Positions 5,686 to 36,298 of a stretch of DNA of 36,303 bases are shown in pieces. The notes beneath the pieces are model-generated. The model saw only the letters and a program-made list of their open reading frames with translations, had not been told where the DNA came from and did no database searches. How positions within the stretch are numbered: the stretch's first letter is position 1; each line of letters opens with the position of its first letter. Source of the stretch: a virus (taxonomy: Duplodnaviria > Caudoviricetes). The position numbers and the translations under genes were made by a program. The stretch covers positions 1 to 36,303 of IMG/VR virus record IMGVR_UViG_3300033076_000343; one strand, given 5' to 3'.

Positions 5686-5703
5686 AATCTTACCCCTGTT
5701 AAT

Positions 5704-5760
5704 AGCCTCATCAGTTGCCGCCAAACGGCAAGACGCGCCCATTGTGGGCGCGTTTCGGCT
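5704..5760 (-). ncRNA. Hammerhead ribozyme, type II
   Basis: Minus strand AGCC-GAAA-C-GCGCCC(ACAAU)GGGCGC-G-UC/UUGCCG(UUUGG)CGGCAA-CUGAUGA-GGCU: complete CUGANGA, GAAA and GUC core with three perfect helices; predicted cut between 5732 and 5731. Confidence 0.93.
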
Positions 5761-6754: not shown

Positions 6755-6800
6755 TAACAAAAATCAGAAAAAAGAAAAAAAGATTGCGCCAGGCGGTTTT

Positions 6801-7250
6801 ATTGTCGGAGATTGTCGCTGATTGTCATGAAGGCGGGGGAAAATGACAATCAATTATTGCATTAAAATCAATAACTTAACCCTGTCATTGTCAAATTGTC
6901 ATGTTTTTATTACCCAATTAATGATTATGTTATTATATATAGGGATATATAGGCTTATCGCCCTTCATACCGTCGCGCCACAATCGCGTGTTGTGTAGAG
7001 CCGAGCAACCTTCCCCCAAATGACAATGACAATTTGGCCAAAAAAATCGCGTAAGTTATTGAAAACAAAAGGAAAAAGCATTGTCATTGCAAATGACAAT
7101 TTCTCTTTTTCAGGAAAAAAACATAGCGTTTTCAATAACTTAACTTTTTAGCCGTTGTCATTTCGGTGACAATCGCCTGGCGCGTCGCACTGGCATGACG
7201 CAAAACGAGAGCGCGTTTAAAACCGGATGACAATTTGACAATTTGACAAT
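6801..7250. repeat. Cluster of TGACAAT/ATTGTCA repeats with IHF-like sites (putative origin or packaging region)
   Basis: 12 exact 7-mers (6821, 6844, 6887, 6895, 7021, 7027, 7080, 7094, 7167, 7228, 7236, 7244) plus variants; AATCAATAACTTA at 6866 fits WATCAANNNNTTR. Confidence 0.8.
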
Positions 7251-34319: not shown

Positions 34320-34400
34320 AATTATCCACATAATGTGTAATAAATTGTTTGACAACTCATCCGGCGTCATTTTATGTGGGTATCTCAACAACAAAAGGTA
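34320..34400. promoter_or_regulatory. Divergent promoter region containing TTGACA and a perfect DnaA box
   Basis: TTGACA 34349-34354; TTATCCACA 34322-34330; inverted repeat ATCCACATAA (34324) / TTATGTGGGT (34372). Confidence 0.6.
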
Positions 34401-34405
34401 CAGTG

Positions 34406-35536
34406 ATGAACCACAGTAATATCGTCGGCGGTTCGACCGCCAAGCGCGTGATGCAATGCCCCGGCTCGGTGGCGCTCGTTCAGAAAATGCCGCCGCAACA
34501 GTCGTCCAACTACGCCGACGAAGGCACGCTCCTCCACGAAGTGATCGCAGAGATCATGCAAGACGGCCTTGAACCCAAGAGTTTTATTGGCCGCGAATAC
34601 AACGGTATTGTCTTAACCGACGAACTCTACGATACAAAACTCCTGCCTGCCCTGCTCATGTTCGAAGAAGTCGATCCTGACGGTCAAATGGAGTTGATGG
34701 TTGAGACGCGCGTTTCTTTTGGAACTTATCTTCCTGATGTGTTTGGCTCTTGCGACATACTTGGCCGCATTGGCGACCGTGCGTTCGTGGTCGATTGGAA
34801 ATTTGGAGACGGCGTACCCGTCATAGCCGAAGAAAACCCGCAGCTTATGTTCTACGCCGCCGCAGCGCGTCGTACAGCAGCGGCCGCGTGGGTGTTCAAG
34901 GATGTCGTGGACATCGAATATGTCATCATTCAGCCGACGCGCGGTATGTCTCGGTGGGTGACAACGCCTGATCGTCTCGACCGGTTTGAGCGCGATTTGA
35001 AGCGCGCTGTCAAGGCCGCGCAAACGCCCGACGCGCCGCTCAAGGCGGGTGGTCACTGCCGTTGGTGCACCGCCAAGCCAATCTGCCCGATCATGCGCGG
35101 CGACGTTGACCGTGCGGTTGTGACGACTTTGCAGGCACTCGACGTTGACGAGCTTGGTCATTACCTGAACATGGCGAAGCGCCTTGAAGAATGGTCAAAA
35201 GACCTTCACAAATTAGCGACGCAGATGCTTGAGAAAGGCATCCCCGTGACGGGCTGGAAGCTCGTCCCGAAGCGCGCGACACGTCAATGGGTGGATGAAG
35301 AGCTTGCAAAGGTTGAGCTGTTCAAACACTTAAAAGAATCTGAAGTCATTGAGACCAGTTTGATCTCTCCGGCTAAAGCAGAAACGCTGTTGAAAAAGCA
35401 GCGCGTCCCTTTACCGAAAGACCTTACTGTCGCATTGTCTTCGGGTAGCACACTGGCCCCAGAGGATGATCCTCGACCAGCCGTGCTCAACATCGGGAAG
35501 CAACTCACTGCTGCCCTTAGTAAACTTGGAGAATAG
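34406..35536 (+). CDS. DUF2800 / Cas4-like PD-(D/E)xK exonuclease
   Basis: GGSTAKRVMQCPGS, GTLLHE, VETRV, FGSCD, VVDWKFG, QLMFYA, HCRWC.....C (Fe-S-type Cys set). Confidence 0.88.
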   Translation: MNHSNIVGGSTAKRVMQCPGSVALVQKMPPQQSSNYADEGTLLHEVIAEIMQDGLEPKSFIGREYNGIVLTDELYDTKLLPALLMFEEVDPDGQMELMVETRVSFGTYLPDVFGSCDILGRIGDRAFVVDWKFGDGVPVIAEENPQLMFYAAAARRTAAAAWVFKDVVDIEYVIIQPTRGMSRWVTTPDRLDRFERDLKRAVKAAQTPDAPLKAGGHCRWCTAKPICPIMRGDVDRAVVTTLQALDVDELGHYLNMAKRLEEWSKDLHKLATQMLEKGIPVTGWKLVPKRATRQWVDEELAKVELFKHLKESEVIETSLISPAKAETLLKKQRVPLPKDLTVALSSGSTLAPEDDPRPAVLNIGKQLTAALSKLGE

Positions 35537-35540
35537 TAAA

Positions 35541-36197
35541 ATGACCAACTCAGTATCGACGTTTTCTAACGCTGGCCTTCCTGCTGTCGCAAGCCTGAAA
35601 GACGCGCTTCGTTCCATGCAGGTCGATGTCGGCCCCGGCGGTGTTGCCATCCTCAAGATGGACAAGACCGGCCATTGGGTGTTCGGCTCTGACCAGACCG
35701 AAGTGCAGGACGGCTCAACGTGGGCCATCAACCCGTTCTCTTTCGTTCACGGCTTTATTGCTTGGGGCGACGGTGAAGTGCTCGGGGAAAAGATGGTGCC
35801 GGTGTCATCGCCGCTTCCAGAAATGGAAGTTGCCCCGCCAAACGCAAAGCGCGGTTGGGAAGTGCAGGTCGGTATGTCACTCAAGTGTCTTGATGGTGAA
35901 GACGAAGGTTTGGAATGCCGTTTCTCGACGACTTCGGTCGGCGGAAAACGCGCAGTCTCGGCACTCGCTGTTGCCATTGCAACGCAAGTTGACGTTGACC
36001 AGACAAAGCCTGTTGCTGTTGTGAAGCTCAAGAAGGAGCATTACCAACACAAATCTTACGGTCGCATTTTCACACCTGTGTTTGAGGTCGTGAAGTGGAT
36101 CGGCATGGATGGTGCAGCCGACGCGGCTGAACCTGAATTGCCGCTTGAACAAGAAGCTGCACCTGCTCCGACACGTCGTCGTCGTGCGGCAGTCTAA
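35541..36197 (+). CDS. Putative single-stranded DNA-binding protein
   Basis: GGAG RBS; follows the exonuclease; YQHKSYGRIFTPVFEVVKW and a flexible C-terminal tail. Confidence 0.6.
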   Translation: MTNSVSTFSNAGLPAVASLKDALRSMQVDVGPGGVAILKMDKTGHWVFGSDQTEVQDGSTWAINPFSFVHGFIAWGDGEVLGEKMVPVSSPLPEMEVAPPNAKRGWEVQVGMSLKCLDGEDEGLECRFSTTSVGGKRAVSALAVAIATQVDVDQTKPVAVVKLKKEHYQHKSYGRIFTPVFEVVKWIGMDGAADAAEPELPLEQEAAPAPTRRRRAAV

Positions 36198-36206
36198 GTA
36201 GGTAGC

Positions 36207-36298
36207 GTGGGCGGTTAAGCCAGCGTTCAAGGATGTTGCACACACGGTCTTTTCTGGCTTTCTGCCGTGTCTTGTTGAGCAACCAAATTGACGCCCAT
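36207..36298 (+). ncRNA. Candidate structured RNA with pseudoknot (family not assigned)
   Basis: Five compatible helices in 92 nt, including a 7-bp pseudoknot AAGCCAG/CTGGCTT. Confidence 0.6.

Follow-up and report, generated by a model that had tools for sequence, protein, structure and literature searches.

The IMG/VR virus record IMGVR_UViG_3300033076_000343 (Duplodnaviria; Caudoviricetes), of which positions 1 to 36,303 were analysed and are called the window below, carries close to its end a structured RNA motif (36207..36298, + strand). Judged from sequence comparison, this motif is real and widespread, and represents in phages a new branch of an RNA that is known but whose function is unsolved, the Agrobacterium small RNA (sRNA) At1 (Rfam RF02496, Atu_At1). 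Covariation across relatives demonstrates a pseudoknotted non-coding RNA, in its secondary structure as in its pseudoknot. The motif is likely homologous to At1 at the level of a clan, while it is not a member at the Rfam threshold. As to its function, we favour, with a probability of about 0.5, a free-standing RNA that would act in trans by binding a host protein.

A pseudoknotted RNA supported by covariation

The comparative structure of the window copy, with helices P1 to P4 and terminal loop L4, consists of the following parts:

36207..36298, +, At1-like structured RNA motif of the phage family, from P1 to P1′ (92 bases; supported by covariation)
36207..36213, +, 5′ strand of P1, pairing with 36292-36298 (double changes at 7 of 7 pairs)
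36214..36226, +, 13-nt bulge with GUU, the 5′ strand of the pseudoknot (36217-36223) and the conserved C36224
36227..36230, +, 5′ strand of P2 (4 bp), pairing with 36288-36291 (double changes at 3 of 4 pairs)
36231..36234, +, conserved 4x4 internal loop, GGAU opposite CAAA 36284-36287, with probable non-canonical purine pairs
36235..36239, +, 5′ strand of P3, pairing with 36279-36283 (first three pairs kept in the family)
36242..36247, +, 5′ strand of P4, pairing with 36265-36270 (double changes at 6 of 6 pairs)
36248..36264, +, 17-nt loop L4 with UUUU (36250-36253), the 3′ strand of the pseudoknot (36254-36260) and UC (36261-36262)
36271..36278, +, variable 3′ hinge from P4 to P3, with an extra hairpin instead in some phage copies and in At1

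These stems, and a 7-bp pseudoknot between the bulge (36217-36223) and the loop L4 (36254-36260), had been proposed in an earlier note made from the window's letters, and all six segments are present at the positions listed. The GTTGC/GCAAC stem (P3) does exist in the window, but only its first three pairs are conserved in the whole family. Folded alone, the window sequence has a minimum free energy (MFE) of -31.7 kcal/mol (z -0.66), which 52 of 200 shuffles equal and which is thus no better than chance, and its MFE structure differs from the comparative one.

The evidence comes from relatives. The protein encoded just upstream, labelled single-stranded DNA-binding protein (SSB)-like, has 597 relatives, of which the best 80 loci were kept, and the motif occupies the same place in 12 of these. 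The family was then enlarged by four pattern scans of IMG/VR that held different parts of the motif fixed. The loosest left free P2, the 3′ half and six of the seven pseudoknot pairs (A18-U61 being fixed), and from the 6 of 64 parts of the database that it covered we estimate a family of about 1,500 IMG/VR records. Among its 119 viral matches, 117 pair at all seven pseudoknot positions and two at six. A metagenome scan gave 117 matches, with seven pseudoknot pairs in 93, six in 6 and at most five in 18, and these 18 look like chance matches.

When the first 100 of these viral loci (119 in all) were scored with a covariance model containing no pseudoknot, every one gave a match. For the covariation test, 97 distinct sequences were aligned to such a pseudoknot-free model: 95.7% of the paired cells are indeed paired, as against 65.3% after shuffling and 32-47% in slid controls, and double changes occur at 24 of the 27 pairs of the whole motif. 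The pseudoknot itself is paired in 99.7% of cells, with double changes at six of its seven pairs. Joint changes number about 61 by parsimony on a rough tree from which the pseudoknot columns had been left out, a figure that a poor tree would inflate. G-U pairs far outnumber A-C in the paired columns (133 versus 4), which assigns the motif to the + strand. Across 300 phage sequences, 33 distinct, fully Watson-Crick pseudoknot helices are found, whereas the core measures 76 or 78 nt in 229 of them and bulge and loop are always 34-38 nt apart. Homologues with covarying pairs, the check that the earlier note had proposed, are thus numerous, and its claim of a non-coding RNA holds: there is no conserved frame, none being open in more than 117 of the 300 copies, and lengths vary modulo 3. 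A coding origin was also considered and rejected, the conserved AUG running into a stop within four codons in 141 of 300.

Besides the helices, the family keeps a set of near-invariant bases: G, U, U/C and A at the start of the bulge, the C after the pseudoknot strand, AGGAUG, UUUU, UC and AAU. In an earlier set of 173 unique sequences, UUUU is present in all and UC in 172, and the 3′ bases C, A, A and U are kept at 97% in the set whose search did not fix them. The core bases UUUU, GGAUG, C, GUU and AAU were each fixed in some scan and free in another; counts of 300 of 300 are partly imposed by the parser and were given no weight as proof. Between P4 and P3, on the other hand, the hinge accepts extra hairpins in some phage copies. 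In the comparative fold, the conserved U4, UC, GUU/A, C and GGAU/CAAA would meet at the pseudoknot junction, where they may form a tertiary core or a binding surface. A CsrA-type GGA site was rejected on inspection, the base before GGA being paired and covarying.

Kinship with bacterial At1

The earlier note had called the motif unassigned. It is rather, in all likelihood, a divergent relative of RF02496, with matches that are sub-threshold but reciprocal. Rfam indeed reports nothing on the motif at the gathering threshold, but the only match around it at E<=10 is Atu_At1, at 18.1 bits and over the full length of the model (positions 1-108 of 108). RF02496 also falls on the motif in 3 of 20 diverse phage copies, at full length and with up to 35 bits, and its matches in 5 of 51 carrier records all coincide with the motif. 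In the opposite direction, a broad phage-only model (R2) gives matches at E<=1 in 8 of 12 At1 loci, all on At1 and weak (E 0.018-0.84), the best being the C58 copy (E 0.018), aligned end to end with GGAUG and CCAA matched.

The two families have the same order and lengths of parts from the closing helix to P4. Both present a 13-nt bulge segment in which A...C flanks a 7-nt strand, and a 17-nt loop made of UUUU, 7 nt and UC. A descriptor of bulge, pseudoknot, UUUU and UC fits 11 of 11 At1-family copies, with no match in 66 kb of flanks and none in 22,000 shuffles. Bulge and loop are 35-39 nt apart in these 11 copies, and both they and the C58 original have the same 7-bp pseudoknot. Taken together, these At1 sequences are paired in 98.6% of cells, the pseudoknot itself in 98.8%, with double changes at four of its seven pairs. 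The Rfam structure of At1 shows no pseudoknot, unlike both the At1 copies and the phage family.

As described by Wilms et al. 2012 in the available part of PMC3384568, At1 is a discrete sRNA, 113 nt long by sequencing and 115 nt by Northern blotting, whose signal is highest at high optical density, and it stands outside the eight sRNAs showing several bands. In an order sample centred on Rhizobiales, RF02496 occurs as one copy each in 11 of 151 genomes, 10 of them above the cut-off. Upstream of 9 of these 11 copies lies a site resembling GGAAC-N16/17-CGTT, found in only 6 of 1,012 background windows and ending 5-14 nt before the start of the At1 model. A consensus of this GGAAC/CGTT type is that of sigmaT/EcfG promoters (PMC5869019, in its available part), and bacterial At1 copies are therefore likely to be under an EcfG stress promoter. 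No EcfG-type site was found in 269 phage upstream regions. Inspection shows terminator-like hairpins after at least two At1 copies. A full-text literature search on the Rfam name and number turned up no function for At1, and the name At1 is absent from the seven supplements of PMC4201532, which were looked up for Hfq dependence.

One short RF02496 match (G043:C1:32726-32792, +; E 0.02) was seen in a record without the phage motif, and is either chance or another variant.

A single-copy motif with varied positions and neighbours

All 50 carrier records examined have one strong copy of the motif, with a single marginal second match (E 9e-4). Among 50 relatives that lack it after the SSB-like gene, three have it elsewhere, and two of these three carry a different structured RNA in the SSB slot. 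Its neighbours vary widely, the motif lying between SSB and polA, SSB and exonuclease, TerS and TerL, or HNH and TerS genes. The SSB-type genes beside it come from no fewer than three unrelated families, and genes for polymerases, exonucleases, GroES, lysis proteins and methylases are further neighbours. Arrays with tRNAs occur at 7 of 268 loci, and in L149 the Betaproteobacteria-1 RNA (RF02932) adjoins the motif on the same strand. None of the 60 most widespread open reading frame (ORF) families of 28 carriers is absent from 10 non-carriers, in an ORF set that includes shadow frames; thus no carrier-specific protein emerges from it.

For the copies with long flanks, 168 in all, a rough strand classifier puts 127 behind a sense gene, and the next gene lies on the opposite strand for 28. 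Of 269 unique upstream regions, 30 contain a TATAAT-like box whose end is 5-7 nt away from P1, as against 0-3 at any other single offset, and such a -10 box accompanies 14 of the 41 copies without a called sense gene upstream but only 5 of the 127 with one.

In a search for cultured carriers, blastn with four variants of the motif matched none of 50,697 phage records, and plasmid blastn with the motif returned only 25-nt chance matches. A pattern scan of GTDB yielded 120 loci, of which 100 were scored with a first, narrower phage model (R1); three were strong matches, all on contigs of metagenome-assembled genomes (MAGs). One further MAG contig (L552) also carries the motif, and the neighbourhoods of these contigs look phage-like. 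Hints at the host come from some carriers: pqqA beside one copy, the Betaproteobacteria-1 neighbour and a Methylopumilus bin.

Free-standing RNA or element in cis

The single copy, the mobility, the promoters at P1, the antisense placements and the intact bacterial relative argue together for a free-standing RNA. The letters of the helices covary freely while lengths and core are fixed, which suggests recognition of a shape and not base pairing; and since unrelated phages carry the motif without a common protein, its partner would be sought in the host. We suppose that the window copy is made within the transcript of the SSB-like gene and released by host nucleases, and that other copies would have their own promoter, with transcription starting from P1. 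P4 would then fold back along P2-P3 and L4 dock on the bulge, gathering the conserved bases, and the 7-bp loop-bulge pseudoknot is predicted to give a compact, tRNA-sized particle. The partner could be a host factor, possibly that engaged by bacterial At1 in the general stress response, and the phage RNA would titrate this factor, or act as a mimic towards it, during infection.

A number of observations speak against this picture. Concerning the kinship, all phage At1 scores are far under the 60-bit gathering cut-off, with none of 73 records above it; RF02496 also gave one shorter match in 1 of 22 non-carrier records; and R1 does not recover At1, its two matches at E<=1 in 11 loci being one off-target and one reverse-strand fragment. 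The EcfG-like pattern was loosened after the sequences had been viewed, and neither the C58 copy nor 2 of the 11 others fit it. C58 At1 is encoded some 50 nt before ligD, in the same orientation, so that At1 itself could act in cis. Moreover, a search of 151 sampled genomes from the likely host order, that of the MAG with L552, with 23-26 candidates scored in each, retrieved only the contig L552 with R2 and nothing with RF02496; no At1-like chromosomal RNA was found in the other 150, and the phage RNA may thus not mimic a host RNA. As to the promoters, a strict comparison limited to antisense copies gives -10 boxes in 2 of 7 versus 5 of 127 (p 0.044), -35 boxes are mostly weak, TAAAAT makes up 8 of the 30 -10 boxes and may be a mere stop codon, and the window copy has no sigma70 promoter match. 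Finally, most copies begin 3-9 nt past a sense stop codon, and relatives carry plain hairpins or terminators in the same slot, which also fits an element acting in cis at a 3′ end.

An element of this kind, closing the upstream mRNA at its 3′ end, is an unlikely but serious alternative. Acting as an exonuclease barrier, a processing site or a partial terminator, it would set the ratio of SSB to downstream products. Apart from the position just after the stop, it would explain why the slot of relatives holds hairpins or U-tailed terminators (in L080 a plain hairpin, with a 3′ flank nearly the same as in the carrier L049), and the 3′ strand does form a contiguous 11-bp helix followed by a pyrimidine-rich tail. 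Yet at least four U follow P1 in only 97 of 269 copies and are absent from the 5 nt left in the window. No intrinsic terminator was called at the site, but the record ends 5 nt after P1. Copies that have a -10 box of their own, or lie antisense to the genes on either side, cannot play this role; in 16 of 80 relatives polA follows without any gap; and one copy per genome with some 20 conserved core bases is more than a barrier needs.

An improbable reading is that of a new self-cleaving or other catalytic ribozyme processing the transcripts of phage operons. A pseudoknot with many near-invariant bases is the profile that Weinberg et al. tie to demanding biochemistry (PMC5737381, in its available part), and the motif is intergenic in operons with varied neighbour genes. 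The earlier note had judged that it fits no known ribozyme consensus, which is confirmed by the lack of any ribozyme-family match around the motif at E<=10, or in 40 further loci at E<=0.5-2. Its remark that the phage already uses one ribozyme is correct as to the fact: a type II hammerhead (window 5697-5760, -; 37.1 bits), between two small genes, is the sole Rfam match at gathering thresholds. As an argument it is weak, a strict descriptor having found this hammerhead in none of 37 other records and never after the SSB-like gene in 80 loci; the SSB slot, with no Rfam match in 20 loci either, shows no known ribozyme. The single size of the At1 relative (PMC3384568, available part) does not suggest cleavage, no circular permutation was seen among 16 parsed copies without the standard 3′ part, and copies predicted to start at P1 have no leader to remove. 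Furthermore, the accessible text of PMC5737381 reports that three similarly complex motifs with 3′ terminators failed to self-cleave.

Quite improbable, too, is a base-pairing antisense sRNA released by RNase P, like C4 of P1/P7 or CI of P4. C4 and CI are RNase P substrates (PMC5499578, as far as available), a closed helix of about 7 bp followed by R-C-C is present in 69 of 269 copies, and the tRNA arrays mentioned above also count in its favour; but RCCA follows P1 in only 3 of 149, and the single-stranded segments are tied up in the pseudoknot, where their bases vary freely pair by pair. Targets in the window, a linear record that lacks a few kb, are not above chance (11 and 18 matches, with 11.2 and 17.4 expected).

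The earlier note had also considered that the motif might regulate the following replication gene in cis. Such a 5′ regulatory element or riboswitch, which would act on polA in the closest relatives, has in its favour the many copies with polA or another gene within about 30 nt of P1′, as well as the place of C58 At1 before ligD. We nevertheless hold it for very improbable: the downstream genes vary and have no common pathway, 28 copies of 168 face an opposite-strand gene, and no conserved expression platform appears in the alignments. That the motif is a single-stranded DNA signal or mobile element, and not RNA, is hardly credible: it does adjoin replication and packaging genes and is held by only 12 of the 80 close relatives at the slot, but its orientation follows transcription in most copies, -10 boxes stand at the right distance, it is single copy, and the At1 relative is an RNA (PMC3384568, available part).

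The trans-acting reading can be extended to a bolder proposal, which lies on the improbable side of possible. At1 and the phage family may be one RNA class with a conserved tertiary pocket: a bacterial general-stress effector RNA with which unrelated lytic phages, bearing it as an auxiliary RNA gene, would disarm a host protein or reprogram it, or else an RNA with a catalytic or ligand-binding activity new to RNA.

The window locus and other structured elements

The window is a linear virus record estimated as 97% complete by CheckV, and its genes include P22-like portal, terminase, primase-type, SNF2 and DUF2800 genes. Two of them precede the motif:

34349..35536, +, DUF2800 / PD-(D/E)XK nuclease gene, in the same operon as the SSB-like gene
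35541..36197, +, SSB-like upstream gene with a beta-rich predicted fold, likely source transcript of the window copy

The motif starts 9 nt past the stop codon of the second gene and the record ends 5 nt past the motif, so that the downstream gene of the window copy is missing; in the closest relative, L001, the next gene encodes a family A DNA polymerase. The label SSB-like, taken over from the earlier note, is plausible and unproven. The protein has no Pfam match, and its predicted model (mean predicted local distance difference test, pLDDT, 76.5) gives weak Foldseek matches to gp32 cores (E 0.04-0.11). OB-fold SSBs are matched with Z 4.2-4.5, while the top Z, 8.4 (root-mean-square deviation 4.4, 139 aligned), goes to a phiC31 integrase-RDF chain.

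Several further observations were made in the window and in related loci. An identical terminator-like hairpin-plus-T-run occurs in two copies in the early region of the window (~2310-2285 and ~2720-2695, - strand), and an AT-rich, gene-poor segment (~6780-7200) with many short repeats of one hexamer type is possibly an origin or control region. The polymerase of L001 (3788-6400) has weak intein/Hint matches, below Pfam cut-offs. The SSB-polA junction looks like an insertion hotspot (L003, L004, L005, L019, L027, L049 and others), with genes that appear by sequence to be HNH-type, methylase and PAPS-reductase-like. In L044, L045, L070, L072 and L038, another conserved structured RNA with a GC-rich closing helix lies ~180-260 nt past the SSB-like stop, before polA; the slot RNA of L038, L044, L045 and L070 has no Rfam match at gathering level. 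More unassigned structured cassettes are seen just past the SSB-like stop in L074 and L150, in L010 and L013, and in L122, some in tandem with the At1-like motif. A repeated scaffold helix around variable inserts builds RNA arrays, often upstream of terminase genes, in 22 of 300 motif loci (L091, L096, L108, L179, L241 and others), and one array cassette has an 18-nt hairpin in common with E. coli rydB (E 6.4). In L727 the motif lies within a three-tRNA cluster, on the opposite strand. Directly upstream of the motif in L560, a phage-borne gene for the PqqA precursor peptide (1218-1286, -; Pfam PqqA, E 6e-11) hints at a methylotroph host.

Significance and comparison with known systems

Our search found no published description of the phage motif. 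An unnamed listing is possible in the alignments of Fremin et al. 2023, who mined IMG/VR 3.0 and obtained 8,495 unnamed candidates (PMC10690425, in its available part), or in the supplement of Weinberg et al. 2017. At1, a catalogued sRNA since 2012, gains here a pseudoknot backed by covariation, a likely EcfG stress promoter and a phage sister family of about 1,500 records. Its structure and function are testable, as At1 is expressed in a cultured bacterium and hundreds of phage variants indicate which bases matter. If the trans-acting reading were true, unrelated lytic phages would carry an RNA counterpart of auxiliary host genes; cleavage or ligand binding, if found, would make a new biochemical class.

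With small self-cleaving ribozymes the motif shares a compact, pseudoknotted architecture, many conserved bases and an intergenic position in phage operons. It differs from hammerhead, twister, twister sister, pistol, hatchet, HDV-like and hairpin ribozymes in being single copy and in having, in At1, a relative of one size. C4 and CI are likewise phage small RNAs with a closed stem, cut by RNase P from longer transcripts (PMC5499578, as far as available), whereas the phage motif does not as a rule have RCCA, has no complementary target found and has no Rfam match to C4/CI. The Betaproteobacteria-1 RNA (RF02932) and other RNAs of phage clusters belong similarly to phage RNA cassettes, with structures unrelated to that of the motif.

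GsrN, a sigmaT/EcfG-dependent sRNA of Caulobacter, has a general-stress promoter type in common with the bacterial At1 copies. As presented in the available part of PMC5869019, GsrN exposes a C-rich loop and has predicted mRNA binding sites, whereas the phage family locks its loop in a freely covarying pseudoknot. We claim no homology.

The closest system remains At1 itself, found on Rhizobiales chromosomes and plasmids. It has a 5-bp P2, a constant extra hairpin in the hinge and a variable internal loop, while in the phage family P2 is 4 bp long, the loop is fixed as GGAU/YRAA and the hinge hairpin is usually missing: the P3/P4 hinge hairpin of At1 is absent in the window copy, and the few phage copies that have one carry unrelated hairpins. 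The C58 At1 nevertheless keeps GGAUG and CCAA as the phage family does, the GGAU/CAA loop being variable in the other 11 At1 copies.
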